This document shows positions 2,899-26,714 of a stretch of 64,000 nucleotides of DNA, piece by piece. The notes beneath the pieces are model-generated. The model was not told the origin of the DNA, did not search any database, and saw only the letters and a list, made by a program, of their open reading frames with translations. Origin of the DNA: Clostridia bacterium (GTDB lineage Bacteria > Bacillota > Clostridia > Oscillospirales > CAG-272); contig JAFQUJ010000017.1 in assembly GCA_017408585.1 (NCBI GenBank), positions 36,782-100,781 on the forward strand. The letters run 5' to 3'. A program made the position numbers and the translations under genes. Within the stretch, counting starts at the first letter, position 1, and each line of letters opens with the position of its first letter.

Positions 2899-2924
2899 TG
2901 TTATTTTCCTGTTTTGTTTATTGT

Positions 2925-5900
2925 TTATTTGTTACGCCAATAATACTGGTCGTAACTAGATGTTAAATATTTCGCTGCAGTTGATGCATCTGACAAATAA
3001 TTCAACGAGTAGCTTGGCGAGAAGCCAGACCAGGTTGAGTATTCCCATCCGGATGCATCTTCAAATATTACGCTTTTAAGTGCTGTACAGTATGAGAACG
3101 CATATATTTCGATAGTCTTTACACTAGCCGGAATAGTTATGCTTTCTAGCGCAGAACAGCTAGAGAACGCATTACCTTCTATTGTTTCTAAGACGCTTGG
3201 AAGCGTTATACTCTTAAGCTTGCTGCAACCACTGAAGGCGTATCCTCCTATTTCGGTTACACCACTTGGAATTGTTATGCTTTCAAGCGATGAGCAATGA
3301 TAGAATGTTTGATATCCTATTTTTGTAAGACCACTTGGAAGAGTAACTGTTTTTAATCTGTAACAGCACCAAAATGTAGCGTTTCCCATTGAAATTACGC
3401 TATCTGGTATCAAAACCTCTTCGAGCGAATTACATTCAAGGAACACGCTTTTGCCCAGTTCAGTTACACTGTTTGGAATTTTCACTGTTTTGAGATATTT
3501 AGAATATGCAAACGCCTCGTCTGCAATTATAGCCACGCTGTTTGGTATTTCGAAAGTTGTATCCTGTTTACCAATAGCATATAAAACAAGTGTCTTTCCG
3601 TCCTTGGAATAAAGAGAGCCATCAACTGACTTGTAATTTGCGTTGTCTTTACTTACCACAATGTTTTCAATTGCGGTACACTCCAAAAATGCTTGCTCTC
3701 CTATCTTGGTTAGTCCCTTTCCAATCGTTATGCTCTTAATTGCGTTATTGCCATAGAATGCATATGGCTTTATTTCTGTAATAGCATCCGGTATTACCAG
3801 CTCTGTTATAGTAGCACCGTTTATGTTCAAGCTATGTGAATAATTTTGAGGATTTGACCACTCGTCAAAGAAAGATATATTACACCATTGCTCTAATGTT
3901 CCAAGATAATTTACGATTTCAAGGCGGTTACAATTTATAAATTGTTGTTCTCCTATTTCGGTTACACTAGATGGAATTGTTATGCTTGTAATTCCTGCGC
4001 AATTACTAAATACGCAATCTCCTATTTTGGTTACGCCGTTTGGAATAACAACGCTTGTTATTGAATCGCAATTATTGAAAATATAGTCTTTTATTTCAGT
4101 AATGGAGTTAGGTATCACAAGGTCTGTCAAAAGAACGCCCTTTATACTAAATGTTTCAGCATAATATGTTGGAGTGGAATATTCATTACTAAATGAAATA
4201 TTACACCATTTCTCTAGCGTTCCAAGATAATTGACTGTCGAAATGCTATAGCAGTAATCAAAGGCATCGTTTCCAACTTGGGATACACCATTTCCAATTG
4301 TCACGCTTTCAAGAGACTCACAAGAACGAAAAGCACTATCGCCTATTGTTGTCACACTATCAGGAATTGTTATGCTTGTAAGAGAGTCACAGTCGTAGAA
4401 CGCTGACGAATAGATAAATTTTGTATTCTCATGTATTTTACAAGAGGTAATATTTTCGTCCGTCACATTTAGCAATAGCAAATAAGGATTGGTATCGTTT
4501 CCTAAATATAATGCATTATCATATGCATTGCATTTCATAGCAACGCTATCTGGTAATATGTATTCTCCCATCTCGGTAATGCTACTTGGAATTGTTATTG
4601 TTTCAAGGAGATCGCAGTCATAGAATGCATAGTTTCCTATTTTGGTCACTCCGTCGGAAATTGTTGCGCTTATAAGCGAGGTGCAATCTGAGAACGCATA
4701 TGCACCTATTATTTTCACATTACCCGGAACAACTATGCTTGCAAGTGCAGTACAGTTTTGGAATGCCGATTTTCCAATTGTCGTAACACCATCAGGAATT
4801 GTTATGCTTGTAAGTGCTGTGCAATTATAAAATGCGCTATTGTTAATATACTTTGTATCTTCATGTATTTGACAAGAGGCAATCTTCTTGTCATTTGCGT
4901 TCATGAGCCAAAGGAACGGATTATCTGCGTTTCCAAGATAACTTGCTGTATCATACACATTATATTTAAGTGCGGTACAGTTAGAGAACGCATAATCAGC
5001 TATTGATGTTACGCTATTGGGGATTGTTACATTCTCAAGAGATGTGGCATTTGCAATCGCATATGTTCCTATTGCTGTCACACCTGATGGAATTGTTATC
5101 TTTGTTATGTCGTCCTGATAATAAAATGCATATTTATATATTTCGTAATCTTTACCATTATAGCTATCGGGCAAGGTTATTTCCGTTATGTTGCCCTTGT
5201 ACGCCATGAGATAAATTTTATTATCTCTTGTCCAAAATACATAGTCGTTTATTGTTTTTAATACGCTTTGTTCACTTGATGAGGTGTGTATTATCAAGTC
5301 AGAATCACTTGCTGACGAAATGTCAAGTGAGGTTAAATTGTAAATCTCCACTAACTTATTACAGTTGTTAAACGCATAATCTTCTATTGTAATAACATTA
5401 GACGGAATTGTTACGCTTAAAAGAGAATTACAGTTAGAAAATGCACTATTTCCTATTGTAGTCACACTAGATGGAATTGTTATCTGCGTAAGAGAGCTAC
5501 AATTGGAAAACGCATTAGCGCCTATTGTAATTACGCCTTCTGGAATGCTTATACTTTCAAGTGCGGTACAACTACTAAATACAGCTTTTTCTATTATTGT
5601 AATCTGGCTTGGGATATTTACACTTTTAAGCGAATGGCACGCACTAAATGCGCATTCTCCTATCTCTTTTACATTAGCGCCAAGAGATATCCTTTCAATT
5701 TCCGAGCAATTGCCAAACGCGCCATATGCAAGAGTTCCACCATTAACAGTAACGCTCTTTAATGTGTTTGGAATGAAATAATTATGATAATCTCTCCATT
5801 GATTTGAATAATGTTGTTCCGTTTTTTTTGCTCCGTCAAACTCGTTTGAACCAAAAATATGGCCAAAATTATTTGAATAATAGGAACTAGAGAAATCTTT

Positions 5901-12398: not shown

Positions 12399-15300
12399 TT
12401 AGCCTCCAAGCTTTCTGTAGGTTTCACATAGCTTCTTATACCACTCGCTATCCACATCTGCATTATAACGATAGATTCTAATCTTGGTGGTTTCGTCAGC
12501 GTTTGCAACAATTGCAACCTTTGGATTGTTAAGTCCACTTGTTACCTTAAGATTGCTCATGAGGTGTGATACAGAGCTTGAATCAACACCCTTTGTCAAA
12601 ATCTTATATGTCATACTGCTACCAAGCTCATTTCTGATTGCAGAAATGGTTGAGGTATTGTTGATAGAAATGATAAAGTGAATTCCATACTGTCCACCCT
12701 TTTCAAGCAAGTCCTTAAATGCGGTAGCGAAAGAAATTCTATCGGGCATTTTTGAAGAGCTTGGTGTAGCGACAGATGAAGGTGCAGAGTTTCTGTTTTT
12801 GAACTTGCTACGAGCAGCGTCAGCAGAGCTTCCACCACTTGTTGTAGCCGGTTCCTCTTGTACCTCTGTTTCCTCGCTGAGAATAAGAGTTGGGTTTTCG
12901 TTAAAGAGGTCTGCGTATCTTTGGATAGAGTGAATAACGACATATCTTGGTGAGTTGTCGCTGATTTCTCCACCGAGAACATCACGCTCGTTATCTCTTT
13001 CCTTATAAAGCTTAAAGAGAGTCTTTATGCAGTTCTTGAGTGCCTCGGTCGAGGATACGGTTTCAACAACATTAGGAAAGTCGTCGCGTATTACATTGAA
13101 GAGGTCGCTCTTGTTCTCGGAGTTTATCATTTCTCCGTTTGCACAGTAAATCTTAGCTCCCTTTTGAGCGCAATCGGCATCAGTTAGTCTATTCGCTACA
13201 AGTGAAAGAAGTGAGAAACCCATCATATCTCTGATAACCTCAATATCGATACCTGCCAAAAGCATATTCATCTTTTCGCCGTCATTTCTCATATCGATAT
13301 TAAATGGCTTTCCTGTTACATAGTCTTGACCTAGCTGTAGTCTGTAGCTCTTCTTCTCTTGCTCGAGCTGTGGAGCAACAGTATAAATAGTTGTTCCCTC
13401 AACAGGTGATGGATCTTCGTTTCCACCGACAATAAACATAGGCTCTTGAGGTATGCTATCTGTAACCTTCTTCCATTTCTTAGTAATTTCTGTGGAGAAG
13501 CTTACACGCTCCTCTACGCTATATGCATAAGCGACACGGAACTCTACGCTATTGTTACCATAACGAATATCGTTGATAACACCAAGACCCTTTTCCGGTC
13601 TGTTAAGGTTTTTAACTGCTTTTGGATCGATTTTGATTTCCAACGCCTCATCCGGCTCGTTAAGACGCAAGCTGATTCTGTTTCCAATATGGTTGAGGAC
13701 CTCCTCGCGAAGTCTTGGGAACTTTGGAACATTTTGTGATGCCCAGAGAATGTTGATACCAAATGCACGGCCCTCTCTGAATAGGAAGCCAAGAGATTTG
13801 ATTGCCTCTGCGCCCGCCTGCTCGTCTGCGAAAAGAACCTGAATTTCGTCGATGATAACAAGAATTCTTGGCATCTTATAGCCCTTAGCAACATATTGAA
13901 CGATATCGGAAACTCCACACTCCTTGAACAGATTTCCTCTGCGCTCCTTCTCAATCATAAGGTTCTTGAAGATAGCAAGAGCGGAGTTGATGTCCTCGCG
14001 AAGATCAACACCCAAAAGCTTGATGTGAGGTAGGCGATGATTTTCGTAATACTTAAATTCTACGCCCTCCTTCAAGTCGAGAAGGTAAATGTTGAGCTCC
14101 TCGGGGCTATACTTATAGCAGGCACTCATAATGATAGCATGGAGAAGGTTAGATTTACCTGAACCGGTACCACCGATTGCAACTGCGTGAGCAGAGCCGT
14201 CGCCTGCGGTTTTAAGGACAAGGCTTTGTACCTCTGCACCTCTTTTACCAATAGGAATGTCGAGAACCTCTGCAGTTGGAGCGATACCCTTGGGGCTCTT
14301 AAGTCGAGCGTTGGTGTCGTCGAACATTTCTTCAAGATAAATTGGCTTACTTGCGATTTCTTGTGCGTGATCCTTCATCATTTCGATAATTGAATCAAGC
14401 TGTGAAACGCTAATGTCGCGCTTTGGCTCAAAGTAGTTGCTTACTCCAAGAGAAAGCTCAAATCTATTGCCTATTTTATTAATCACAAGAGCGCTCTTTG
14501 ATGCGGATTCAACAAAGCGCTGATGCTCAGCAGGCTTATACATAGAGCCTAGGGAGCAAGCCTTGTTGTTTATAATAATGCTAAATACGCCCGTCTTGTT
14601 TCCGGCTTGCATAAGTCTAAGGAGCTTCTTTGAGGTTTCATCTCTTAAGCCTGATGGATAGTTAGCAAGAACAAATAGATAAACATTTTGAGGGTTAGCC
14701 TGGAATTTTGAGTTGTACTCGTAAATATCCGAAACGCTATTGTAACTTAGAACCTCGTCATTAATTTTGTTCATTCTCTGCTCCATATCCTTGATGGTGT
14801 CCTCAAGCTGACGGTCATCACGAATAATTCCGCTGAGCAAAATTCCGTTACTTATTTTAGTTAGCTTTGCAAAATGTGAAAATTCCATTACATTATCAAT
14901 ATCCACTAGACAGAAATTAATTCTGTTTGCAGGGAATGACAAAAGGAATTGAATTATAAGCTGATTTACGAAATTTATCGTTTTCTCGGAGTAGTTTTCC
15001 TCGTCGATATTAAGCATGATATTTCCACACTTTTTAAGGTCGAGAACAAGAGGTGCGCTCAGGTGTCCCATCTCTAGATATCTGTCAAGAATTGGGCTAT
15101 CAGCAATATAGCCAAGATGCTTTAGGTTATCCTCAACAAGAAGCTTAATATCACCGATATTGATGCTTTGATTATAGGTATCCGTTCCTGCTACAATATC
15201 AACATCAGATTTCTTTCCGTCCTCTTCAAGCTCTACAAAAAACTTCTTTGGAATTGCCTCTACGCTTTCATCAACAAATAGCTCGTCAAAGCGCTTGGAA

Positions 15301-15980
15301 TATGTTGCGCGAAGCTTTGATTCAAACTCGGCAAGCCATGCGTTTGCGCTTCCTCCAACAAAGGAATTAAAGCCTGCGATATTGAATTTCTTATCGTAAA
15401 GCGCAATCAATGCGTCAATGCAAGCAATTGCCTTTTTACAGCAAGGGAAAATTTCGGATACGATGTTGGCAATTGGGCGTGGGTCATTAATTTGCTTCCT
15501 TTGTTTTGCGCCTGTGTCATATTTGGTTACATTTTGATGGTTACCTGTGTAGGTGATAAAGGTTTCTCCATCAACCTCAACCTTGATAGGTGGAACCAGC
15601 GCATCAAAGTCAACTGAATTTAGCTTTGCTATGCAATCGTTTATCTTGTCAAGAAGCTCGTGAAGAATCCTTTCGTTTTCCTCGTAGCTCTTGCGAGAAT
15701 ATTCCTTTGTGTCAACGCTTGTGCGATTCCACTCGTCCTTATAGTCTTTGCATAGAAGCTCGACTAAGTCGTTTATATCTTCTTGAATGCTGATAAAGTG
15801 CGTCGCCTTAAACTCCTCGTACTTTTGCTTCATTTCAGCTATCATTTCAGCTGACGCTCTCTCGATTGATCTCTTTTCGTTTGAGTATTGATTTGTCAAT
15901 CTCGCTTCAAGATTATCAATTTCAATACAATGGGAGTTGATTTTTCTAATCACTTCCATAATTTTGGTAATTTCTATCAT
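12399..15980 (-). CDS. FtsK/SpoIIIE-family (EccC/EssC-like) multi-domain ATPase, 1193 aa
   Basis: Coiled-coil N-terminus; degenerate first ATPase-like domain; intact central domain (GGTGSGKS, LVIIDEIQ, GRAFGI); degenerate third domain; no obvious transmembrane helix. Confidence 0.85.
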   Translation of the reverse strand: MIEITKIMEVIRKINSHCIEIDNLEARLTNQYSNEKRSIERASAEMIAEMKQKYEEFKATHFISIQEDINDLVELLCKDYKDEWNRTSVDTKEYSRKSYEENERILHELLDKINDCIAKLNSVDFDALVPPIKVEVDGETFITYTGNHQNVTKYDTGAKQRKQINDPRPIANIVSEIFPCCKKAIACIDALIALYDKKFNIAGFNSFVGGSANAWLAEFESKLRATYSKRFDELFVDESVEAIPKKFFVELEEDGKKSDVDIVAGTDTYNQSINIGDIKLLVEDNLKHLGYIADSPILDRYLEMGHLSAPLVLDLKKCGNIMLNIDEENYSEKTINFVNQLIIQFLLSFPANRINFCLVDIDNVMEFSHFAKLTKISNGILLSGIIRDDRQLEDTIKDMEQRMNKINDEVLSYNSVSDIYEYNSKFQANPQNVYLFVLANYPSGLRDETSKKLLRLMQAGNKTGVFSIIINNKACSLGSMYKPAEHQRFVESASKSALVINKIGNRFELSLGVSNYFEPKRDISVSQLDSIIEMMKDHAQEIASKPIYLEEMFDDTNARLKSPKGIAPTAEVLDIPIGKRGAEVQSLVLKTAGDGSAHAVAIGGTGSGKSNLLHAIIMSACYKYSPEELNIYLLDLKEGVEFKYYENHRLPHIKLLGVDLREDINSALAIFKNLMIEKERRGNLFKECGVSDIVQYVAKGYKMPRILVIIDEIQVLFADEQAGAEAIKSLGFLFREGRAFGINILWASQNVPKFPRLREEVLNHIGNRISLRLNEPDEALEIKIDPKAVKNLNRPEKGLGVINDIRYGNNSVEFRVAYAYSVEERVSFSTEITKKWKKVTDSIPQEPMFIVGGNEDPSPVEGTTIYTVAPQLEQEKKSYRLQLGQDYVTGKPFNIDMRNDGEKMNMLLAGIDIEVIRDMMGFSLLSLVANRLTDADCAQKGAKIYCANGEMINSENKSDLFNVIRDDFPNVVETVSSTEALKNCIKTLFKLYKERDNERDVLGGEISDNSPRYVVIHSIQRYADLFNENPTLILSEETEVQEEPATTSGGSSADAARSKFKNRNSAPSSVATPSSSKMPDRISFATAFKDLLEKGGQYGIHFIISINNTSTISAIRNELGSSMTYKILTKGVDSSSVSHLMSNLKVTSGLNNPKVAIVANADETTKIRIYRYNADVDSEWYKKLCETYRKLGG

Positions 15981-16025: not shown

Positions 16026-16376
16026 CTAAGCGATTTTTCTCTCGCTCTCAAAAAAGAACAGTAATCTAACCACTCTTTCCTTGCGTCGTCTTAGCGCCTC
16101 GCTCATCTCATAGGCGTAACGCATATTTCCTTCTGCGATGGTGGCAAGCGTGTTGCGTAGCCCTTGTTGCTTGCGCTTGTAGGCGCGTAGCCTCTTAACA
16201 TATTCCTTAGTCGAGGAAATGCTATCCGGCTCTCTCTTATAAGGAGAGGGCGCATCGCCTAGGTACATATCAAAATATGTCTTATCGACAGTATCTAATA
16301 CGCTATTTTTGAAGCACTCGCCAAAACAGCTAATAGGTGGCGAGGTGGCTCTGTATTGTCCTGTTGTGTTTTTCAT
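16026..16376 (-). CDS. Hypothetical basic protein, 116 aa, first gene of the ESX-like operon
   Basis: ATG with AAGGA RBS downstream of a consensus promoter. Confidence 0.55.
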   Translation of the reverse strand: MKNTTGQYRATSPPISCFGECFKNSVLDTVDKTYFDMYLGDAPSPYKREPDSISSTKEYVKRLRAYKRKQQGLRNTLATIAEGNMRYAYEMSEALRRRKERVVRLLFFFESERKIA

Positions 16377-16446
16377 ATATCTTCCTTTATGTAATCCTTT
16401 AAGTTTTGTTTATATTCACTTTGCTTTCACAAAAAGCTCAATATAT

Positions 16447-16476
16447 ATTATACTATAATAAATATATAATTGTCAA
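16447..16476 (-). promoter_or_regulatory. Sigma-A promoter of the ESX-like operon
   Basis: TTGACA (16476-16471), 18 bp, TATAAT (16452-16447) on the minus strand. Confidence 0.7.
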
Positions 16477-16616
16477 TATGCACAATAAACAAAGCCCCCC
16501 CCCCCATTTTTTGTGCATTTTATACAAAAACTCCAAAATTTTGATACTTTCAACAAATTTATTCTTGTCGATTTTTAAAATTATTTAGAATGTGCAAAAA
16601 ATGGTACATATATCAT

Positions 16617-16645
16617 TTGACAGGGCACTTAATATATGGTACAAT
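16617..16645 (+). promoter_or_regulatory. Sigma-A promoter of the MBL-WYL unit
   Basis: TTGACA, 17 bp ending in TG-N, TACAAT. Confidence 0.75.
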
Positions 16646-16663
16646 TATTACGAGGTGATTAAG

Positions 16664-17260
16664 ATGATTAAATGCTTTTATGGTGGCGTTCTAGACTCAA
16701 ACGCCTATCTTTTATATGATGGTGGCGAGGCGATGCTAATTGACTGTGGAGTTGCCCCTCAAAAAATTTGCGAATTTTTGCGTGAAAGCTCCCTTAAATT
16801 AAAGTACATTATCCTAACTCATGGGCATTTTGACCATGTGGAATATTCCGAGGAATACGAAAAGCTTTTCCCTGATGCTATGGTGCTTTGCCATAAGGAC
16901 GAAATTCCCGTTTTACGCGACCCTGTGGCTAATGTTACTGCTCTTTTCTCGGCTGGGCGCACATACGAGCTTAGCGCCCACGCCCTAGAGGGTGGCGAGA
17001 GGCTATTTATCGGCAACACAGAGGTGGAAATCATACACACCCCCGGACATTCTGTCGGTGGAATATGTATTTTTTGTCCTAAGGAGAATGCTATTTTTGT
17101 GGGTGATACTCTATTTCGTAACGGATATGGCAGAACTGATTTTAAGGGTGGGAGCATGACGCTTCTTCGCGCCTCGCTCAAATTATTGTTCTCGCTTGAT
17201 GGTAGCATAGAGGTTTACTCGGGACATGGTCCTAAAACGACAATAGGTCAGGAGAGTTAA
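16664..17260 (+). CDS. MBL-fold metallo-hydrolase (glyoxalase II/YcbL-like)
   Basis: THGHFDH, HTPGHS, GDTLF and GHG motifs; ATG 16664 with GAGGTG RBS. Confidence 0.9.
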   Translation: MIKCFYGGVLDSNAYLLYDGGEAMLIDCGVAPQKICEFLRESSLKLKYIILTHGHFDHVEYSEEYEKLFPDAMVLCHKDEIPVLRDPVANVTALFSAGRTYELSAHALEGGERLFIGNTEVEIIHTPGHSVGGICIFCPKENAIFVGDTLFRNGYGRTDFKGGSMTLLRASLKLLFSLDGSIEVYSGHGPKTTIGQES

Positions 17261-17261
17261 A

Positions 17262-18260
17262 ATGGATTCACTTGAAAAAAAGAAGCTTGCGCTCCTTAGA
17301 ATTTTACAGATTTTATGGCGTGACAGTGACGAAAATCACCCTCTTATGCAAGAGGATATTATACGAATTCTCGACACAGAGTACGGTGTTTTAGTTGACA
17401 GACGCACAATTGGACGCAATATTGCGCTCTTAAAGGATGCGGGATTTGAGATTGAGTCCACAAGGCGTGGCTCTTATCTTGTACAGAGAGTCTTTGAGGA
17501 TAGCGAGCTACGACTTTTGATTGATAGCGTGCTTGCCAGCGCACACATAAGCCCAAGTCACTCTAAGGCTATAATTGAAAAGCTATGCTCTCTTTCGTGC
17601 AAGCATTTCAAAAGGCATGTAAAAAACATCTATTCAGTAAATGACTGGGGAAAAAGCGACAGCCCTCTTTTGTTTTTCAATATTGAAATAATTGACGAGG
17701 CAATTGAGCGTGGCCTTATGCTTTCCTTTGATTATAATAAGTATTCCTCGGATAAGCGCCTACATAAGTCGGCATCTCACATCGTAAGCCCTTACCAGAT
17801 GCTCCTTCACAATCAGCACTATTATCTTATGGCGCTAAACGAAAAATGGGGAAACATTACCTTTTATAGAATGGATAGAATTATGAACATCGCTCTTACC
17901 ACCAAACCACTAACTCCCTTGCGCTCGGTAAAGGGATACGAGGGTGGAATTGATTATAAAAAAATTGCGTGCTCTCTTCCCTATATGTTCACCGACGAGC
18001 CAAGGCGAATAACCTTTGTCGCAAAGGAGTGGGCAATTGATCAAATCGTCGATTGGTTTGGGCGTGATATTACGATTACTCCCGAGGGCGAGGACCTTCG
18101 CGTTAGTGTTTTGGCAAGCCCTAACGCTATGCTCTATTGGTGCTTGCAGTATTCGGGCGCAGTTGAGGTAATAGAGCCACAGGATCTAAGAGAAAGGGTA
18201 AAAAATGCACTACGAGAGGCACTCGAAAAATACGAAAAACAGCCCTCTCCAAATAGATAA
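17262..18260 (+). CDS. WYL-domain transcriptional regulator (wHTH-WYL-WCX)
   Basis: N-terminal HTH (VDRRTIGRNIALL); WYL core 'VSPY...YYLMA...FYRMDRI'; C-terminal 'VEVIEPQDLRERV'. Confidence 0.9.
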   Translation: MDSLEKKKLALLRILQILWRDSDENHPLMQEDIIRILDTEYGVLVDRRTIGRNIALLKDAGFEIESTRRGSYLVQRVFEDSELRLLIDSVLASAHISPSHSKAIIEKLCSLSCKHFKRHVKNIYSVNDWGKSDSPLLFFNIEIIDEAIERGLMLSFDYNKYSSDKRLHKSASHIVSPYQMLLHNQHYYLMALNEKWGNITFYRMDRIMNIALTTKPLTPLRSVKGYEGGIDYKKIACSLPYMFTDEPRRITFVAKEWAIDQIVDWFGRDITITPEGEDLRVSVLASPNAMLYWCLQYSGAVEVIEPQDLRERVKNALREALEKYEKQPSPNR

Positions 18261-18263
18261 AAG

Positions 18264-18371
18264 TGTCCCAAATTTTGGGACATTTTCTATCCTTATCTAT
18301 GTTACAATGCTATATGTAGTAATTGGCTTCAGACTTGTGTGCCAAATTTGGCTCATTATATATGAGATAAT
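18264..18371 (+). promoter_or_regulatory. Tandem promoters with palindromic operators upstream of the helicase operon
   Basis: TGTCCCA-AATTT-TGGGACA (18264-18282) then TGtTACAAT (18300-18308); TGTGCCAAATTTGGCTCA (18338-18355), 10 nt, GATAAT (18366-18371). Confidence 0.6.
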
Positions 18372-18403
18372 ATTGGCACTTAGTAAGGGAAAGGATGATT
18401 TGA

Positions 18404-21400
18404 ATGAAGCTATCACAAAAATATGTAGAGCTGTTTCTATCGGAGCTTAAGCTATACAGAAGGCTCACCGTCGCAGAGATGAACTACTACGCTCACCATC
18501 ACGACGAGCTTCTTATGGAGCTCAAGGAGCTACGCAAGCGTGCTAAGCTTGCGCGCGACAAGAAATGGTTAGAGGAGCAGGCTAGGCTCGAGGAAAAGAG
18601 GCTGGCGCGAGAGGAGGCGGAGCGTGCCGAGGCAGAGCGTCAAAGAATTCTCGAGGACGAGCGTGTTGAGAGCATAACCTGTATGGATTTGCCAACCGAT
18701 TTTGAGAACCTCTACACACAAGACGAAAATACAGAGCTTGAGCACACCGATAATGTCGGTGATGCGCTTATCAGCTCACTAAACAAGCTCGCAAGGGTTG
18801 ATATCGAATACATCTCAGCTATCACGGGGCTTGATTACAAGAGCGTTATTTTAGCGCTCAAGGGTGCGATTTATCAAAATCCGCAGAAGTGGAACGAGTG
18901 CTTCTATTTAGGCTGGGAAACGGCTGAGGAATATCTTAGTGGCTCTCTTCGTGAAAAGCTACAGGTTGCAATTGAGGCAAACGAGCGCTACAAGGGCTAC
19001 TTCTCCGACAATGTAAGAGCGCTTGAAAGGGTTATCCCATCAGGACTTAGCATAAATGATATATATGTAACTCTTGGCTCTCCGTGGCTACCCACTACTG
19101 TAATTGACGATTTTATAGTTTATTTGCTTGGCGATGTAAGCAATCGTTTTCCGGAGGGTGCTCTTAGATGCTATCACGACGAGGGTAGCGGAACATGGGA
19201 GATACCTGTCAAGAACAGATATACGGGTACAAGATACAATGGCAGATGCTTTGACACCTATGGCACGCGCGATTTGAATGCGCTGATTATCATTGAAAAA
19301 ACGCTAAATCAAGCGCCAATTGAGGTCTATGACGAATTTCCGTCAAGGACCAATCCGGGCAAGCTGGAAAAGCGCTTAAACGAGGGACGCACCTTCCGTG
19401 CGCTTGAAAAGCAAGAGGTCATTATCAAGGCGTTCAAGAGCTGGATTTGGACCTCGCCTGAGCGTCGAGCAGAGCTTGAAAGGATATATGAAACGAGGTA
19501 TTCCTCTAACAGAGTGCGTCATTTTGACGGCTCGTTTCTCACTTTACCGGGGCTTAGTCCTGACATAGAGCTTTATCCTTATCAAAGAAATGCGGTTGCT
19601 CGTATTCTCTTCACCCCTAACACTCTGCTTGCTCACGATGTTGGAAGCGGTAAAACCTACATTATGATTGCAAGCGCTATGGAGCTAAAAAGAACAGGCA
19701 TCTCCAAAAAGAACATATTTGTCGTTCCAAATAACCTGGTTGGTCAGTGGAAGGATATTTTCTTATCGATGTATCCCGAGGCTAAGCTCCTTTGCGTTGA
19801 GCCAAAGAGCTTTACTCCTAAAAAGCGTCTTGGTGTCTTAAAGCAGATGCGCGACGAGGAATTTGACGGAATTATTATTGCGTATAGCTCCTTTGAGCTT
19901 ATTCCATTTTCAAAGAAAGCACAAATCGAGGCGCTCGAGGCAGAGCTGGCAGAATACAACAAGGCAACAACCAATCTTTACACAGACCGCTATGCAAGGC
20001 AAAAGAAGGCGCTTGAAAAGAAAATAGCAGAGCTATACGAGAAAACAGAGCTATCCCTTGGCTCAATTTTCTTTGACGAGCTAGGTATAAGCACTATCTT
20101 CATTGACGAGGCGCACAACTATAAAAATGTGCCACTTCACACTCACACGGGCAGGGTTTTGGGAATTAGCTCCTCGGGTAGCACAAAGTGTCAGGATATA
20201 TTAAACAAGGTTCGCTATGTTCAAAGGACAAATGGCGGACGAGGCTGTGTTTTAGCGACAGGAACGCCCATTACAAACTCGATAACTGATGCGTTTATTA
20301 TGCAGAAATTTCTTCAAGATGGCGAGCTAAAGCTACTTGGACTTTCCAGCTTTGATGGCTGGATTGGTATGTTTGCCGAAAAGCACACGGACTTTGAAAT
20401 AGATGTCGATACAAGCTCGTATCGCTTGACCACTCGCTTTTCGAGATTTCACAACCTACCCGAGCTAACTAAGCTCCTTGCCAGCGTTGCCGACTTCCAT
20501 GTCGTTGACCAAAGCGATGGCGTTCCCTTGCTTGACGGATATACGGATTGCGTGTGCTCTCGCTCAAGCGAGTTTAAGGGCTATCTCAAGGTAATATCCG
20601 CTCGTGCTGAGGATGTGCGCTCACGCAGAGTTCCAAGAACGGAGGACAATATGCTTCTTATCACAACAGATGGTCGTAAGGCGGCGCTTGATATGCGTCT
20701 TATTGACGACACAATCGTGGTAAGTGGTCACTCCTCAAAGGCGCAGGCGTGCGCAGATAACGCCTTCGATATTTACAAGCGATATGAGCTTACGAAAAGC
20801 ACACAGCTTATATTCTGTGACTACTCTACCCCAAAGGCAACATTTAATCTCTATGACGAGATACGCACACTGCTTGTTGCTAAGGGCGTTCCCTATGACG
20901 AGATTGCGTTTGTTCATTCGGCGACAACACCCGCATCACGCGATAAGCTCTTTGAGGCAGTAAGGCGCGGAGAGATACGAATTTTGATTGGCTCTACCTT
21001 CAAGCTGGGGCTTGGCGTAAATGTTCAGGACAAGCTAATTGCAATCCATCACCTTGATGTTCCGTGGCGTCCTGCCGACATGACACAGCGTGAGGGCCGT
21101 ATTCTTCGTCAAGGAAATGAAAACGAGAGGGTTTTCATATTTAGATATATAACCAAGGGTAGCTTTGATGCGTATTCTTGGCAATTGCTTGAAACTAAGC
21201 AACGCTTTATCAGCTCTATTTTGTGTGGACACATGACAGAAAGAAGCGGAAGCGATGTGTGTGATACGGTGCTTTCATATGCCGAGGTAAAGGCGCTAGC
21301 TGTCGGAAATCCGCTTATCAAGAAAAGGGTTGAGATAGCAAACGAGCTTGACAGGCTATCAATTTTGAAGCGTGAGCGAGTTTTGCGCTTTGAGAGCTTA

Positions 21401-21910
21401 AAGCTAGAGCTTGAGGCTCTCCCATCTAAGATTGAGGCACAAGAGGTCATATTAGAGCGTGCAAGGCTTGACATGGCGTTTCTTGGCGAGCAAGAAGCTC
21501 CGCCCGAGCTTTCGCCCGACGAGCGTCGCGCATTTAGAGAGCGTCTTGAAATCGCTCTGCGCTCAAATACTCTTGCAAGCGAGGAAAGAGAGCTATTTGA
21601 GCATCGTGGCTTTATGCTTGTGCTGGGGGCAGGAATGAAGGCTGACGAGCCATTTATTTGGCTTACGCGCGAGGGCAAATACCACCTTGAGCTAGGCGAG
21701 GCCAGCCTTGGCTATTTACCTCGTATCAACAATTTCCTTGACAGCTTCAAAAAGCATCTTGAAAGGCTTGAGGAGGGCTACGAGGCGCTTATAAACAGGC
21801 GTCGAGATATTGAAATTGCACTTAGCGAGCGTGACGAGTACTCACAAAGAATAGAGGAGCTAAAAGCAGAGCTACAACAATTAGATAAGAAATTAGGAGT
21901 TACACAATGA
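18404..21910 (+). CDS. SNF2-related SF2 helicase (DarB/ICE methylase-helicase family) without a methyltransferase domain, 1168 aa
   Basis: LYPYQ, HDVGSGKT, DEAHNYKN, ATGTP, GLGVNVQ and QREGRILRQGN motifs; no NPPF/Y motif seen. Confidence 0.85.
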   Translation: MKLSQKYVELFLSELKLYRRLTVAEMNYYAHHHDELLMELKELRKRAKLARDKKWLEEQARLEEKRLAREEAERAEAERQRILEDERVESITCMDLPTDFENLYTQDENTELEHTDNVGDALISSLNKLARVDIEYISAITGLDYKSVILALKGAIYQNPQKWNECFYLGWETAEEYLSGSLREKLQVAIEANERYKGYFSDNVRALERVIPSGLSINDIYVTLGSPWLPTTVIDDFIVYLLGDVSNRFPEGALRCYHDEGSGTWEIPVKNRYTGTRYNGRCFDTYGTRDLNALIIIEKTLNQAPIEVYDEFPSRTNPGKLEKRLNEGRTFRALEKQEVIIKAFKSWIWTSPERRAELERIYETRYSSNRVRHFDGSFLTLPGLSPDIELYPYQRNAVARILFTPNTLLAHDVGSGKTYIMIASAMELKRTGISKKNIFVVPNNLVGQWKDIFLSMYPEAKLLCVEPKSFTPKKRLGVLKQMRDEEFDGIIIAYSSFELIPFSKKAQIEALEAELAEYNKATTNLYTDRYARQKKALEKKIAELYEKTELSLGSIFFDELGISTIFIDEAHNYKNVPLHTHTGRVLGISSSGSTKCQDILNKVRYVQRTNGGRGCVLATGTPITNSITDAFIMQKFLQDGELKLLGLSSFDGWIGMFAEKHTDFEIDVDTSSYRLTTRFSRFHNLPELTKLLASVADFHVVDQSDGVPLLDGYTDCVCSRSSEFKGYLKVISARAEDVRSRRVPRTEDNMLLITTDGRKAALDMRLIDDTIVVSGHSSKAQACADNAFDIYKRYELTKSTQLIFCDYSTPKATFNLYDEIRTLLVAKGVPYDEIAFVHSATTPASRDKLFEAVRRGEIRILIGSTFKLGLGVNVQDKLIAIHHLDVPWRPADMTQREGRILRQGNENERVFIFRYITKGSFDAYSWQLLETKQRFISSILCGHMTERSGSDVCDTVLSYAEVKALAVGNPLIKKRVEIANELDRLSILKRERVLRFESLKLELEALPSKIEAQEVILERARLDMAFLGEQEAPPELSPDERRAFRERLEIALRSNTLASEERELFEHRGFMLVLGAGMKADEPFIWLTREGKYHLELGEASLGYLPRINNFLDSFKKHLERLEEGYEALINRRRDIEIALSERDEYSQRIEELKAELQQLDKKLGVTQ

Positions 21911-23019
21911 AGGATTTTGGAAAAATAAACATTCCCATTTTGAGCGTTGACAAAACCGTTGAGGCTCTATCAAGCATATATATATCTGCTGTAATATCGG
22001 ACACCCCCTTTAAGAGCCTACCATCAATCATGCTCTGGGGTGCGCCCGGTATCGGTAAATCTCAGCTTGTGCGTGCTCTTGCCGAGGAAATTCAAGGCGG
22101 AACGGGCAAAAGGTGCGTTGTAACCGATGTGCGCTTGCTTTTGTTCAACCCGATTGACCTTCGTGGCATTCCAACCGCAAGCGCCGACAAGACCCTTGCG
22201 GTTTGGCTAAAGCCAAAGATATTCCAAATGGACGAAAGCGACGAGGTTGTAAACATTCTGTTCCTTGATGAGATTTCGGCTGCACCTCAATCGGTTCAAG
22301 CGGCGGCATACCAAATCACGCTTGACAGAATTATAGGTGAGCATTCTCTGCCCGACAACTGCATAGTTATTGCGGCAGGAAACAGAGTAACAGACAAGAG
22401 CGTTGCGTACAAGATGCCTCGTGCGCTTGCCAACCGTCTTTGCCACATTGAAATTGAGGCGAATTTTGATTCATGGCTTCGTTGGGCTGTATCACACGAA
22501 ATTTCACCAAAGATTGTCGGTTTTTTATCGTTTAGGCACGATATGCTTCTGGAAAATGATGCGTCAAGCGACAATCAAGCATTTCCAACTCCTCGTTCAT
22601 GGGAGATGGTAAGCAATCTATTAAAGGTTTCGGGTGATGACCCAAGCGCAATTTATCCACTTATATCGGGCTGTGTAGGTGGTGGCGTTGCAACTGAATT
22701 CTGCTCCTGGTGCAGAGTCTTTTCAAGGCTTCCAAAAATAGAGGATGTATTCACGGGACGCTACACAGAAATCCCCTCAGAAACAGATGTGCTTTATGCG
22801 CTGATTTCCTCGATGACCTCATATGTAAGGGAGCATCAAAATGATATAAGAGGAATTGAGCTTTCTATTCAATACGCTATGAGGCTTCCCGCCGACTTCT
22901 CTGTTGTTCTGCTTAAAAACTACATGGCAATAAACGAGGATTTCAAGCGATATCTTATGACCATTCCAAGCTTCACAAGATGGCTTAGCTCAAAGGGGAG
23001 ATACCTAAATGGCAATTGA
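21907..23019 (+). CDS. MoxR-like AAA+ ATPase, 370 aa
   Basis: GAPGIGKS, LFLDE, AAGN, ALANR and TPRSW motifs; ATGA overlap with the helicase. Confidence 0.88.
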   Translation: MKDFGKINIPILSVDKTVEALSSIYISAVISDTPFKSLPSIMLWGAPGIGKSQLVRALAEEIQGGTGKRCVVTDVRLLLFNPIDLRGIPTASADKTLAVWLKPKIFQMDESDEVVNILFLDEISAAPQSVQAAAYQITLDRIIGEHSLPDNCIVIAAGNRVTDKSVAYKMPRALANRLCHIEIEANFDSWLRWAVSHEISPKIVGFLSFRHDMLLENDASSDNQAFPTPRSWEMVSNLLKVSGDDPSAIYPLISGCVGGGVATEFCSWCRVFSRLPKIEDVFTGRYTEIPSETDVLYALISSMTSYVREHQNDIRGIELSIQYAMRLPADFSVVLLKNYMAINEDFKRYLMTIPSFTRWLSSKGRYLNGN

Positions 23020-24301
23020 TATGACAAGGGCTCGTGCCTGCGCTAACAGGCTTTTGATGTCGAGGCTTCGCATTCTTGGAAATCACGGCTTTTACGGACT
23101 TCTTTTGTCGCATATTACCTTCGCTCTTGACGAGAGCCTGGATACTGCGGCAACTGATGCGAAAAAAATCTACTTTTCGCCCGATTTTCTTGATAAGCTC
23201 TCCGACTCGGAGCTTGATTTTATTATGATGCACGAAATTATGCATGTGGTGCTTCAGCATTGCTTTCGTGATGGGGATAGAAACCCCGATGCGTTTAATA
23301 TCGCGTGTGACATTGTCGTAAATTCAAACATTTTAAAGAGCCTAGGTGGCAATTTAAGCAGTATTACTGTTAGGTGCGCCGGTGGTGAGTCGATGCATCT
23401 AGCTCCCGATGGCAAGGAGGGGCATCTATACACAGCCGAGGAGGTTTATGAGATGCTCCCCGATTCAATTAAAAATCAGCGTCCCAAGAGTGGCTCAGGC
23501 GAGGGTGACGGGGACAGTCAGGACAATTCCTCGGGCAATCCGCAGAGTCGTGGCTCTGCCTCGACGAGTGGCAAGCTAAAGCCACTTGATGACCATTCAA
23601 GATGGGGAACGGGCGAAATTGACAACGAAATAGTTGACCTTTGGGCAGGGCATCTGGAGGATGCGATTAAGGTTATCACCATAACAGAGCCCTCTAACAC
23701 ATGGGGCAACATTCCCGCCTTTGCACAAAGAATGCTACGCGAGCGAAGCGAGGGACAAACGAATTGGCGCGAGGTGCTAAGCAACTTCGTTCAAGAGGAG
23801 ATAAACGATTATTCCTTCTCTCCACCCGACAGGCGCTTTGGAGAATTCGATTTCTTCTTGCCCGATTACAACGAAACGGACGAGAGCGTAAAGGATATTT
23901 TATTTATGATAGATACCTCGGGCTCAATGACTGACCAAATGATAACTGATGCCTTTAACGAGGTGCGTGGAGCTATACTCCAATTTAACGGACGCCTCGA
24001 AGCGCATCTTGGCTTCTTTGATGCTACTGTCGTCGAACCTGTCACTCCGTTTTCGAGCATTGACGAGCTTGACATTATTCGTCCTATTGGTGGCGGTGGC
24101 ACGAATTTCCACTGTGTTTTCCATTATGTGCGCTCAAAAATGGACACTCTCCCCTCTAGTATTATAATTTTGACTGATGGCTACGCTCCGTTTCCACAAA
24201 AGCAGGATGCTATGGACATTCCTGTGCTTTGGGTTATCAACAATGAAGAGGTTGACCCACCGTGGGGCAAGGTTATAAGAATTAAGGACATCTCAAAATA
24301 A
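23009..24301 (+). CDS. Putative metallopeptidase (HExxH) + vWA domain protein (DUF2201-type)
   Basis: TAATD, HEIMH, NIACD; MIDAS DTSGS, GGGGT and LTDG. Confidence 0.85.
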   Translation: MAIDMTRARACANRLLMSRLRILGNHGFYGLLLSHITFALDESLDTAATDAKKIYFSPDFLDKLSDSELDFIMMHEIMHVVLQHCFRDGDRNPDAFNIACDIVVNSNILKSLGGNLSSITVRCAGGESMHLAPDGKEGHLYTAEEVYEMLPDSIKNQRPKSGSGEGDGDSQDNSSGNPQSRGSASTSGKLKPLDDHSRWGTGEIDNEIVDLWAGHLEDAIKVITITEPSNTWGNIPAFAQRMLRERSEGQTNWREVLSNFVQEEINDYSFSPPDRRFGEFDFFLPDYNETDESVKDILFMIDTSGSMTDQMITDAFNEVRGAILQFNGRLEAHLGFFDATVVEPVTPFSSIDELDIIRPIGGGGTNFHCVFHYVRSKMDTLPSSIIILTDGYAPFPQKQDAMDIPVLWVINNEEVDPPWGKVIRIKDISK

Positions 24302-24306
24302 AGCAA

Positions 24307-24332
24307 AAAATCTCGACATGTGTCGAGATTTT
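24307..24332. terminator. Bidirectional intrinsic terminator
   Basis: AAAATCTCGACA-TG-TGTCGAGATTTT between convergent genes. Confidence 0.75.
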
Positions 24333-24363
24333 CGCTTTTTGGGCTTTTATTTATGAATTGAGC

Positions 24364-25623
24364 TTAGGCAATATCAACCTTAACTATGCTATGCTCTGAG
24401 CGAATTCTTGCAATATCCGAGGCAAGAAGTGTTTTCCTTTCAAGGAGCTCTCTTGCAACTGCCTCGTAGAAGCCCCTGTTTTTGCAAAGCATTTCCTTTG
24501 CCTTGAACAAATATTCGTCAAGCTTTGCTCTTGTAAGTAGCTCACTTTCGTGCTGACTGCGCTCCGAGGTATCACTATATCCACATCCGAGAACATGGTT
24601 GCCCATAGTTCCGCTATCCGTTATTGCGTCCTTTATATGAGCTTGCGCTCTATACAAATCGTTTTGCGCTCCACTTGCGACTCTGCCTAAGGTAAGCTCC
24701 GCTCCTGCCTTGCCACCGAGAATAGTCAAGATTATGTGTGCTCGTCTTCTGTGCTCCTTGCATTTACGGACAAATCCTATTCTGTCCGAGCCACAAAGGG
24801 CAGAAATTGAAACCATTCCGACGCTTCCCTCCAAAATAAGCTCCGATATTACTGCGTGTCCCGCCTCGTGATAGGCTACCTCGGTTAGTTCGTCCTCAGT
24901 TAGCTCGTTAAGGCTTCTTATATGATAGTTTTCGCGTAGGGTTGCCATTACAAGATGACGCATTTCGACCTTGTCGCATCTTTCATATGCTGCGTAAACT
25001 GCGGCATCGTTAATTGTCGCCTCAAGTGTTGCACAGGAATCGCCTGCAAGCATTTTTGCAACATCGTCAATATTTACATCTGCGACAATCGGCTTGCCCT
25101 TAAGATAATGCTCTATTATCTTCGTTGCATCGTCTATGCTCGGCGCTTCAACAACAATTCGTCTATCAAAGCGACCACTTCTTATAAGTGATTTTGGGAT
25201 ATCTCCGAGATCATTTGCGGTGGCAATTATAAACACATCATCGCACTTAACCTTATCAATCCACGCTTGAACTGCCGATAGCTCCTCTTGACTTCCGTCT
25301 TGACAGGGGAACTTGTCAAGGTCGTCGAGAAGTATGATTGACGGGGCGTTTTGCTGTGCCTCGGTAAAGACTCTTTCTATCTCTCTTATAAAGTCCCCGT
25401 CGCCCTTTGTTCTGCGTAGAATATATGAATTTATGCCACACGCCTCAATCAAGGTATGCGCCATAAGTGATTTGCCAAGTCCGGGTGCGCCATTTATCAA
25501 AATTCCGTTGGGCATATTTGCGCCCATTTTCTTGTAAATGTCACGATTTTGCACGATGTCGCAGATTTGCTTTAATTCGTCCTTAATTTTCTCATAGCCA
25601 ATAATTTTTTCAAATGCTTTCAT
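24364..25623 (-). CDS. Soluble FtsH-like AAA+ / peptidase M41 protein with no membrane anchor, 419 aa
   Basis: ATG 25623 with AGGAG RBS; GAPGLGKS, LLDDLD, LIRSGRFD, AYHEAGH and GAQND. Confidence 0.85.
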   Translation of the reverse strand: MKAFEKIIGYEKIKDELKQICDIVQNRDIYKKMGANMPNGILINGAPGLGKSLMAHTLIEACGINSYILRRTKGDGDFIREIERVFTEAQQNAPSIILLDDLDKFPCQDGSQEELSAVQAWIDKVKCDDVFIIATANDLGDIPKSLIRSGRFDRRIVVEAPSIDDATKIIEHYLKGKPIVADVNIDDVAKMLAGDSCATLEATINDAAVYAAYERCDKVEMRHLVMATLRENYHIRSLNELTEDELTEVAYHEAGHAVISELILEGSVGMVSISALCGSDRIGFVRKCKEHRRRAHIILTILGGKAGAELTLGRVASGAQNDLYRAQAHIKDAITDSGTMGNHVLGCGYSDTSERSQHESELLTRAKLDEYLFKAKEMLCKNRGFYEAVARELLERKTLLASDIARIRSEHSIVKVDIA

Positions 25624-25662
25624 TTTCTTTTCTCCTGTTCGTTTTGGTTTTGGTGTACTAAT

Positions 25663-25820
25663 ATTGTACCATTTCTTATGTGCTAAAAATGGCACATAAA
25701 TGACGGTGGCGCGATTTTTTTCGTAATTACGATTTTCAAGGAGAAATCGCTTATCTCCCTCAGCTGTTTTTTGATTGTAGCACAGCATAGGGTCAAAAGT
25801 CTACTACATTTTGGGACTTT
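25663..25820 (-). promoter_or_regulatory. Tandem promoters mirroring those at 18264-18371
   Basis: Minus strand: GTCCCAAA...TGcTACAAT (25817-25774); TGTGCCATTTTTAGCACA (25696-25679), 10 nt, TACAAT (25668-25663). Confidence 0.6.
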
Positions 25821-25922
25821 TTTTCGCCACAGGGTATCTTGTCATATTTTTGCGACACCAAGGGCGATTTTGAGAGGTTTTTTGAAAATTTTTTATCAAA
25901 AATCGCACACAGGGTATCAAAA

Positions 25923-25967
25923 AAGTGAGTAGCTCTGCTCTTTTACAAGAGCATTACTTACTCACTT
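25923..25967. terminator. Long hairpin, probable terminator of the DUF4886-like gene
   Basis: AAGTGAGTA...TGCTCTT-TTAC-AAGAGCA...TACTCACTT. Confidence 0.55.
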
Positions 25968-26009
25968 ATTTTTATTAATTTTTTGACTATAATAATTTAT
26001 ATTAGAAAA

Positions 26010-26714
26010 TCAAAGCGCCTTTAGCTTTTCGATAATAGCGGGGTCTGTGCCCTCGGGTGCGAAGGCTACTGTTTTTTTGCTCTTGCCCGTAAAGAACTCG
26101 TACATTGTAAGTCCGGCAAGGTATCTGCCATAATCAAGTGACAGATGGAAGCCATCACGATTTATTGACACTCCACCCTTCTCCTCGTTAAATTCGTCAA
26201 GCGCACGCGCCCTTTGAATTGAGGTTGCGTTATCAATTATCGGCAAGGAATATTTTGATGTGATTTTACTTGTCGCCTCGACGATTTTTTCGTACATTAA
26301 ATTTGTATCTCTATTATAGTATGGGAAGCCACCATGGTTTGATTTTGGGTCGTATGACCATGTTCTGTGGAACACAATTTTAGCATTTGGGCAAGCGCTC
26401 TTGATGTAGTCTATTACATATTTAATAAAAGGCTCATATGTCCATTCAATTCCGGAAAAATGGCTTACCTGTTGGATTGTGATAAAGTCCCATTGCGCAA
26501 GAGTTAGCGCCTCGTTTATTGATTTCATTTCGAGCGCCTCGCCATCAAGCTGATACTCATAATATGCATTGTTTTCCTTGATATTGTTCATGTGCGTTTC
26601 AAGTGAGCAACCACCAATATAGAGATTACGCACATAGATTTCGTCATTTGAGATTTGTCTTAGGTATCTTGTTGCGTCCTGTGAAAAGCTGTTTCCAATA
26701 CATAATACATTCAT
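26010..26714 (-). CDS. SGNH/GDSL-like hydrolase (DUF4886-type)
   Basis: IGNSFS, LYIGGCSL and RDGFH motifs. Confidence 0.8.
   Translation of the reverse strand: MNVLCIGNSFSQDATRYLRQISNDEIYVRNLYIGGCSLETHMNNIKENNAYYEYQLDGEALEMKSINEALTLAQWDFITIQQVSHFSGIEWTYEPFIKYVIDYIKSACPNAKIVFHRTWSYDPKSNHGGFPYYNRDTNLMYEKIVEATSKITSKYSLPIIDNATSIQRARALDEFNEEKGGVSINRDGFHLSLDYGRYLAGLTMYEFFTGKSKKTVAFAPEGTDPAIIEKLKAL

Follow-up and report, generated by a model that had tools for sequence, protein, structure and literature searches.

Several WYL-domain transcription activators have been described that act at promoters without a -35 element. PafBC recognises the consensus tGTCgg(N10)tA(N3)T, contacts the DNA at -23 to -28 with no -35 present, and is described as working by "sigma adaptation" (Muller et al. 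2021, PMC8635444); the same paper bears out the background given in a sequence-only reading of the DNA studied here, namely that the PafBC motif lies near the -10 box in place of a -35. DriD, a homodimer, occupies a pseudo-palindrome that overlaps the -35 position; in its regulated promoters, which have no -35, the distance from this site to the -10 is always the same (PMC13004042, cryo-electron microscopy, 2026). The SiwR activator needs the -26 region (PMC10693628). The literature that we found explains the working of such -35-replacing WYL activators for Actinobacteria, Caulobacter and Moraxellaceae only. Here we analyse a 64,000-nucleotide stretch of a Clostridia bacterium (assembly GCA_017408585.1, contig JAFQUJ010000017.1, positions 36,782 to 100,781; hereafter the window, in whose numbering positions are given). 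It holds an island in which an operon for a metallo-beta-lactamase-fold (MBL) hydrolase and a winged helix-turn-helix (wHTH)-WYL-WCX regulator, WYL1, is followed by a SNF2-MoxR-VWA operon and, convergent to the latter, a gene for a soluble FtsH-like protein. The subject of this analysis is element b, an 18-bp palindrome found upstream of both convergent units, together with a second shared element, a, further upstream.

A palindromic box at a fixed distance from the -10 hexamer

As read from the sequence, element b has the consensus TGTNCC-N6-GGNACA, an 18-bp palindrome placed exactly N10 upstream of a -10 hexamer and without a -35. Both copies are found where the sequence-only reading had put them (Table 1): their 18-mers are identical at 14 of 18 positions, and the spacers are both 10 nt long and contain TG (18356-18365, ending TGA, for b; ending TGG for b' on the minus strand, where the 18-mer runs from 25696 to 25679). 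Over the whole 42-nt module, 30 of the 42 positions agree. A strict form of the pattern occurs at these two places only in the 1,481,775-bp genome, and the reversed control pattern occurs nowhere. Assuming that the hexamers are the true -10 boxes, b would span about -40 to -23 with its proximal half-site at about -28 to -23, covering the -26 region as in activator-type promoters, and the predicted starts would lie 26 nt before the SNF2 ATG at 18404 and 33 nt before the FtsH-like ATG. PafBC-type WYL activators have their sites in this register, N10 before the -10 and with no -35, which agrees with the sequence-only reading of b as a WYL site. The palindrome overlaps the promoter at both b and b'; this is common to activator and repressor types and does not discriminate between them.

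For a genome-wide scan, we used a position matrix made from 20 sites in 10 loci of other genomes, with none from the window. The sites at 16591-16608 (a third box, in front of the MBL-WYL operon), 18338-18355 and 25679-25696 took ranks 1, 4 and 5 in the window's genome (scores in Table 1). Only 14 strand-specific positions among 2.96 million score at least 15, five of which belong to the three island sites, and 91 positions fall in score bins of at least 12. All three top boxes of the genome are found inside 9.1 kb surrounding the WYL gene of the island.

We then looked at other loci. The first set comprises 15 SNF2-anchored loci with their flanks (SNF2 orthologues of 46-56% identity, from the same order), searched with a consensus read from the window's two b sites. 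The 18-bp palindrome, N10 and a TAnAAT-like hexamer were found upstream of SNF2, WYL and other genes, and the spacing histogram of these loci plus the island counts 23 -10-like hexamers at N10 vs 2-9 at each of the other 40 spacings. For replication, a second set of 30 loci from public metagenome-assembled genomes was chosen solely on similarity to the WYL protein, the identity being 44-58% in 29 cases; according to their record titles, they come from Clostridia, Christensenellaceae, Acutalibacteraceae and other groups. Here 106 matrix matches gave 21 hexamers at N10 vs 0-5 elsewhere, with at least one N10 site in 22 of 30 loci, often directly flanking the gene of the WYL orthologue. Both sets thus have the element at one fixed distance from the -10, a feature of activator-type promoters, and the b layout recurs in related loci upstream of SNF2, WYL and FtsH-like genes, among others. 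Palindromes with 5-, 7- or 8-nt cores, counted in the 45 loci, gave 16, 12 and 9 matches and no spacing peak.

Pooling both sets gave 59 distinct sites in 32 loci, with the consensus A-TGTaCCgtaTaTGGTACA-T, N10, TATAAT (the -10 part of which is partly built in, as the hexamer filter required A at position 2 and T at position 6). The best -35 match at 16-18 nt has at most 3 of 6 bases in 57 of the 59 sites, as compared with 18% of 1248 random TAnAAT hexamers from the same loci that reach at least 4, and TG at -15/-14 is found in 20 of 59. With no -35 in 57 sites and TG in only 20, most such promoters should therefore be weak without a helper.

As for the genes behind the boxes, the N10 layout is found upstream of SNF2 in 12 of 16 loci at a score of at least 12.8 (it is also present in locus L090), and upstream of the WYL gene itself in many loci. 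Six other loci have FtsH-like orthologues (33-40% identity) beside WYL orthologues, and the N10 layout lies directly upstream of all six genes (scores 10.0-18.1 in five; at the promoter in locus L098 only the distal half-site and the spacing are kept). Because all six carry it, membership of the FtsH-like gene in the regulon, a claim of the sequence-only reading, has good comparative support, and on these sequence comparisons we regard the gene as a well supported, recurrent member. In locus L079 the FtsH-like gene is on the same strand as the SNF2-MoxR-VWA genes and follows them and a further AAA+ gene, with short gaps.

Some observations concern the boxes and their target genes individually. 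Directly after each b-type -10 there is ATATT(G/A)G(C/T)AC (25654-25671; 18372-18379), a further, inverted half-site, which at the FtsH-like promoter gives a second palindrome embedding the -10 (matrix score 9.3); this inverted half-site is not conserved in the 59-site consensus from the other loci. At base 25682, inside b', a related strain (a contig of run X2) has A instead of G, which on the FtsH-like coding strand shifts the proximal half-site towards the family consensus GGTACA. Two SNF2 orthologues (loci L076 and L077, genomes G086 and G057) lack MoxR and VWA genes behind them, and in place of a box have just a TGGTATAAT extended -10 upstream; neither genome has a WYL orthologue at the 50% level, and the pair is a natural negative example in line with a box-regulator link. 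Broken SNF2 orthologues occur in L079 (10249-13775, split into two frames), L083 (in-frame stops) and L082 (7352-9412), the last being truncated, with an AraC-type regulator and a GH31 gene behind it.

The regulator and competing explanations

WYL1 has a WYL domain (Pfam PF13280, residues 141-210, 37.8 bits vs a cut-off of 21.8) and a WCX domain (PF25583, residues 255-321, 33.5 bits vs 23.9), and its YYL and RxDR strands align with those of PafC and DriD. The N-terminus matches HTH_11 at 20.3 bits, below the cut-off of 25; in an AlphaFold2 model of the protein (predicted local distance difference test score, pLDDT, 76.4; predicted template-modelling score 0.50), residues 4-73 form three helices plus a two-strand wing at pLDDT 85-91, a region that is covered by full-length Foldseek alignments to DriD. 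Sequence matches in the PDB at E <=0.01 are only PafC (3.7e-5) and DriD (1.6e-4 to 5.6e-4); BrxR and CapW are absent at this threshold. Foldseek with the model gives DriD 1.4e-13, PafBC 6.5e-13, BrxR 1.1e-7 and CapW 8.5e-7. Judged by the model, WYL1 is nearer in fold to DriD and PafBC (the activator branch) than to BrxR and CapW. It is probably a homodimer, as suggested by the two-fold symmetry of the box.

We consider it probable, with appreciable doubt, that element b serves a homodimeric wHTH-WYL-WCX activator, probably triggered by single-stranded DNA (ssDNA), as its operator (WYL box). An ssDNA-triggered activator is favoured because the box appears to have the PafBC register and the DriD symmetry and because the regulator is closer to DriD and PafBC; the binder, the sign of control, the ssDNA signal and the start sites are what we infer. 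In the mechanism that we propose, DNA damage or some other event exposing ssDNA would lead the WYL domain to bind ssDNA, as in PafBC, SiwR and DriD. The ssDNA-bound dimer would bind the box at about -40 to -23, where a -35 would sit, and enable transcription by the housekeeping RNA polymerase from promoters with a -10 and no -35. P2 (SNF2-MoxR-VWA operon) and P2' (FtsH-like gene) would be switched on in this way, and the third box, which precedes a complete sigma-70 promoter by 8 nt, would serve to tune the MBL-WYL operon.

Several points weigh against this reading. Both window promoters have a TGn extended -10 and might fire without an activator, which would suit a repressor. The 20 training sites of the matrix were picked by the analyst using the N10 criterion, and only the scan of the window's own genome, the first spacing histogram (with its consensus read from the window) and the second locus set are free of N10-based choice. 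With a loose consensus, no genome-wide enrichment at N10 was found in the window's genome (54 vs 27-69); the regulon in this genome would therefore be tiny, unlike that of PafBC or DdaA. TM-scores from Foldseek are low, at 0.24-0.30, since the domains of the WYL1 model are arranged in another way than those of the solved structures. Five genomes keep the box at the SNF2 promoter and have only a 27-30% identical WYL paralogue, and therefore the binder may be the paralogue, or both proteins. One gut metatranscriptome contains 6% of the sampled words, as contigs only (18883-19071, 19151-19359, 23578-23815 and 24641-24862); these short SNF2, VWA and FtsH-like pieces show no starts, strand or induction, and DNA carry-over is possible. 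A second run, X2, holds the related strain mentioned above, which is 95-99% identical.

The extended -10 elements lead to a competing explanation, which we regard as unlikely though deserving of attention: the box would be a CapW/BrxR-type repressor operator, at which a WYL dimer blocks the polymerase at -40 to -23 until ssDNA releases it and the extended -10 fires alone. CapW and BrxR belong to the same wHTH-WYL-WCX family, with palindromes in neighbouring operon promoters and release by ssDNA (PMC11662680). The TGn before the -10 at both window promoters and the weak PADLOC matches of the neighbouring genes to defence-type helicase and IetA models would also agree with a repressor. However, repressor operators need no fixed register, and the -10 spacing is invariant over the 59 sites in 32 loci; with TGn in only 20 of these, promoters that have neither -35 nor TGn would be poor even when de-repressed. 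Foldseek favours DriD and PafBC about a million-fold over BrxR and CapW, neither of which appeared in the PDB search, and the island is not associated with a recognised anti-phage system, as PADLOC calls no complete one.

The choice of WYL1 as the binder is the least secure step in the activator reading. The genome encodes a second WYL-WCX protein, WYL2 (G000:C12:103055-104068, which is 2274-3287 of locus L130, minus strand), about 2.3 kb beyond the window end; it is 29% identical to WYL1, conserved across the majority of the order's genomes, and has an MntP-like gene behind it. By eye, its own promoter has a degenerate box in the N8-(-35) register. That the boxes are read mainly by this paralogue, or that the two proteins divide the sites (e.g. 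b vs the TGTCCC-type palindrome a), seems rather improbable to us. It would agree with the presence of a WYL match in 52 of 61 related genomes, in most cases at the identity of the paralogue (27-31%), with the five genomes mentioned above that have the SNF2 box and the paralogue only, and with the paralogue loci, which hold the box family at N8-(-35) (8 of 34), the layout also seen for the third box. Three further genomes have a 52-57% WYL orthologue, which in two of them is on another contig than the SNF2 locus. Against WYL2 as the binder, 22 of the 30 loci fetched by similarity to WYL1 hold N10 boxes, often flanking that gene, the three best boxes of the genome cluster around WYL1, and the half-site variants TGTACC, TGTGCC and TGTCCC sort cleanly with neither paralogue. 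Finally, the likeness of the b elements could be due to chance or to a functionless local duplication, both regions being A+T-rich and intergenic, where -10-like and palindromic strings are common. We find this hardly credible, as a foreign-trained matrix singles out these sites among all positions of the genome and the layout is kept where the WYL proteins are only 44-58% identical.

Element a, the third box and the island genes

The coordinates of the features are listed in Table 1. The sequence-only reading had proposed a two-part architecture, with element a as the other part, and the two parts fared differently. From GTCCCAAA to TACAAT the distance is indeed exactly 44 nt in both copies (18265-18308; 25817-25774), and in register the two modules have 30 of 44 positions in common. 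Each is the other's best match among the genome's 832 TGnTAnAAT anchors, with 22 of 35 free positions shared (the next-best matches share 18 and 19; random pairs reach at least 22 at a frequency of 0.0021). The bare 8-mer GTCCCAAA is not rare, with 49 genome copies on both strands. In the 45 other loci there is no N20 peak and no recurrent 19-mer class. The part of the proposal that stands is therefore b, as a conserved operator-type element; a does not hold up as conserved architecture.

Table 1. Coordinates of the boxes, promoters and genes of the WYL island in the window.
Feature	Position	Strand	Evidence
Third WYL box, 18-bp palindrome	16591..16608		Top genome score with foreign-trained matrix, 20.2 and 15.5 on the two strands
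Promoter of MBL-WYL operon	16617..16645	+	TTGACA-17-TACAAT with TG before -10; promoter scan 11/12 matches; canonical sigma-70
Metallo-beta-lactamase-fold hydrolase gene (MBL)	16664..17260	+	Pfam Lactamase_B, E = 4.5e-31
wHTH-WYL-WCX transcription regulator (WYL1)	17262..18260	+	Pfam WYL 37.8 bits, WCX 33.5 bits
Element a, plus copy; perfect 19-bp palindrome, 7-nt core, WYL-box-family half-sites	18264..18282		Matrix score 22.0 with one core base removed
P1, extended -10 TGnTACAAT, 20 nt after palindrome a	18300..18308	+	Sequence
Element b, putative WYL box of SNF2-MoxR-VWA operon	18338..18355		Matrix score 17.7, genome rank 4
P2, TGn then -10 hexamer GATAAT (18366-18371)	18363..18371	+	Sequence; predicted start ~18378
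SNF2-MoxR-VWA operon, three genes	18404..24301	+	Pfam
SNF2-type helicase gene	18404-21910	+	Pfam
MoxR-like AAA+ ATPase gene	21907-23019	+	Pfam
DUF2201 metallopeptidase gene with VWA domain	23009-24301	+	Pfam
Bidirectional terminator hairpin between convergent units	24306..24333	both	Terminator scan of both strands, 11-12 pairs
Soluble FtsH-like protein, AAA+ plus M41 peptidase, 419 aa	24364..25623	-	Pfam AAA 7.8e-20, Peptidase_M41 8.9e-13
P2', TGG then -10 hexamer TACAAT (25668-25663)	25663..25671	-	Sequence; predicted start ~25656
Element b', putative WYL box of FtsH-like gene	25679..25696		Matrix score 17.6, genome rank 5
P1', extended -10 TGnTACAAT	25774..25782	-	Promoter scan TAGACT-18-TACAAT with TG
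Element a, minus copy; one half-site only (GTCCCAAAA), no palindrome	25809..25817	-	Sequence
Weak box-like palindrome TGTC-N10-GACA	25840..25857		Matrix score 11.9
Second weak box-like site upstream of FtsH-like gene	25892..25909		Matrix score 11.9, minus strand

What element a is instead can be read in two ways. It is real as a shared sequence and is not established as an operator; the two modules probably give each unit a second, constitutive promoter of the extended -10 kind, and the plus-strand palindrome may act as a variant box, may terminate the WYL operon, or may do both. We give nearly even weight to the explanation that 18264-18282 is the intrinsic terminator of the MBL-WYL transcript and that the likeness of the a modules is that of ordinary extended -10 promoters of common descent. 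In RNA the plus copy forms an 11-bp hairpin (-17.7 kcal/mol, z = -5.54) with the tail UUUUCU, a short U run, 4 nt after the WYL stop TAA (18258-18260), so that a stable G+C-containing hairpin, a U run and a place downstream of a stop are all present (the terminator scan lists the hairpin on the minus strand). The single half-site of the minus copy, where no 18- or 19-mer scores 6 or more, and the lack of a counterpart in the 45 loci also agree with a terminator. On the other side, the 19-mer has half-sites that match the box family perfectly, their score of 22.0 with one core base removed being above that of any 18-mer in the genome; several orthologous loci have a box in the corresponding position, immediately behind the stop codon of the WYL gene; and the a modules are reciprocal best matches among the 832 anchors. 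The 73-nt stretch between P1' and b' folds no better than shuffled sequences (z = -0.95).

Downstream of the third box, the -35 of the MBL-WYL operon follows after 8 nt and its -10 after 31 nt. The box shares the layout palindrome-N8-TTGnnn-N17-(-10) with the paralogue loci, in which 8 of 34 matches are at N8 vs 3 of 201 in the WYL1/SNF2 loci, and the two WYL paralogues may share or divide sites. If the hexamers are true -10 boxes, the palindrome centres at about -31.5 (b), -42 (a) and -52.5 (third box) hint at a spacing of about one helical turn.

Further box-like sites are weaker. The TGTC-N10-GACA site noted earlier at 25840-25857 is present in the sequence, with no -10 hexamer 10 nt after it; together with the site at 25892-25909 it makes two weak boxes in 386 bp, more than expected. 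Elsewhere in the genome, we rejected a genome-wide regulon, the matrix combined with the N10 layout giving the two b sites plus one weak, chance-like match. The matrix combined with the N8-(-35) layout gives the third box plus four weak matches, among which those before nrdG-nrdD and before a 61-aa open reading frame (ORF) are not claimed as members. A near-copy of the b box is found at G000:C10:73219-73236 (about 420-437 of locus L129), with a score of 13.9 and N9 spacing to TATAAT; lying upstream of a 153-aa ORF without a Pfam family, it may be an extra regulon member outside the island.

The window's genome consists of 20 contigs with 41.9% G+C and is 69% complete. The true start of the MBL gene is the ATG at 16664, by the ribosome-binding site GAGGTGA in the sequence just before it. 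The order SNF2-MoxR-VWA is kept in 11 of the 15 fetched SNF2 loci. On the island, PADLOC called no complete known defence system, and its partial, domain-level matches are to helicase parts of DrmD, BrxH and ZorD and, for the AAA+ domain of the FtsH-like protein, to IetA; an Rfam search of 16300-26100 found no family. Just upstream of the island is a gene for a 1193-aa protein with an FtsK/SpoIIIE domain (12399-15980, minus strand), with further matches to the PADLOC models SspH and mad8. Next to it is orf116 (116 aa, no family; 16376-16026, minus strand), which has a perfect sigma-70 promoter, TTGACA-18-TATAAT, at 16476-16447. In the divergent promoter region between orf116 and the MBL-WYL operon there is a run of 11 C (16495-16505), and in the related strain of run X2 part of the depth (4.95 of 12.2) supports the call of a 1-base deletion at 16507; the run may be a length-variable homopolymer or reflect assembly uncertainty.

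Other genes recur across ten loci of the WYL islands. They encode a CbbX-like AAA+ protein of 650-720 aa (AAA plus AAA_lid_6), a DUF2779 protein, a PHP/DnaE-like polymerase and a second NAD-dependent DNA-ligase-like (LigA-like) protein with BRCT, and there are small ORFs that belong to no family; these recurrent genes are mostly behind N10 boxes. Tandem GmrSD-like genes also occur, in two loci directly behind the WYL gene. The recurrent gene set suggests processing of DNA or protein-DNA adducts rather than a classic defence system.

Comparison with known systems

In the full-text literature searched (supplements being outside its scope), we found no WYL activator regulon and no such box described in Bacillota or Clostridia, and nothing that ties together DNA-protein crosslinks, SprT, MoxR, WYL and vWA. 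Within that literature, both the phylum and the set of target genes have not been described before for a WYL-type box. The box provides a sequence-level handle on a regulon in uncultured gut Clostridia, linking genes of unknown role, and it predicts that SNF2-MoxR-VWA, the FtsH-like protease and other AAA+ genes are induced jointly by a DNA-derived signal. We propose only tentatively, and with more doubt than belief, that gut and rumen Clostridia (Christensenellaceae, Acutalibacteraceae and relatives) have an SOS-independent stress regulon with two WYL paralogues, the N10 and N8-(-35) geometries and a novel toolkit. If so, the toolkit would be unlike the PafBC, DriD and DdaA regulons, with a SNF2 translocase, a MoxR ATPase, an SprT-like/VWA metallopeptidase and a soluble FtsH-like protease, and would further include the CbbX-like AAA+, the DUF2779 nuclease-like and the extra LigA-like and DnaE-like genes; it would fit the removal and repair of protein-DNA adducts. 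Each window unit would then have tandem promoters, a constitutive extended -10 (a) plus a WYL-dependent one (b).

Among the known regulators, CapW and BrxR are of the same protein family, have palindromic operators beside the regulated operon and sense ssDNA; they are, however, repressors that ssDNA releases from DNA, and they match WYL1 much more weakly (PMC11662680). DdaA of Moraxellaceae is a WYL activator with a palindromic motif in DNA-damage and defence promoters, found by a similar comparative search, but its motif is CGWCA-N5-TGWCG and its regulon is genome-wide and replaces SOS (PMC12392091). SiwR of Mycobacterium smegmatis, a homodimeric WYL activator, binds ssDNA and has a small local regulon of genes adjacent to its own (PMC10693628); it targets DinB/YfiT-like genes, and its conserved element is a GGA triplet rather than an 18-bp palindrome.

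The two closest systems are DriD and PafBC. DriD of Caulobacter crescentus, a homodimeric activator of the architecture wHTH-3HB-WYL-WCX, is the best structural match to WYL1. Its box, ATACGAC(X)7GTCGTAT, is 21 bp long with a 7-nt core and unrelated in sequence to element b, and its targets are didA, bapE, recJ and dnaG, in contrast to SNF2-MoxR-VWA and the FtsH-like protease here. With PafBC of mycobacteria, the locus shares a WYL-WCX regulator and promoters with a normal -10, no -35 and a hexamer N10 upstream, in our case the half-site GGNACA. PafBC, however, is a heterodimer on a single asymmetric element, whereas the 18-bp palindrome here implies a homodimer on two half-sites; and PafBC controls about 150 genes in Actinobacteria, as compared with three boxes in a 69%-complete genome of Bacillota (Clostridia). 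If the hexamers are -10 boxes, element b combines the register of PafBC with the symmetry of DriD. The locus is a natural setting in which to test whether the N10 register of the asymmetric PafBC heterodimer can also serve a symmetric homodimer.

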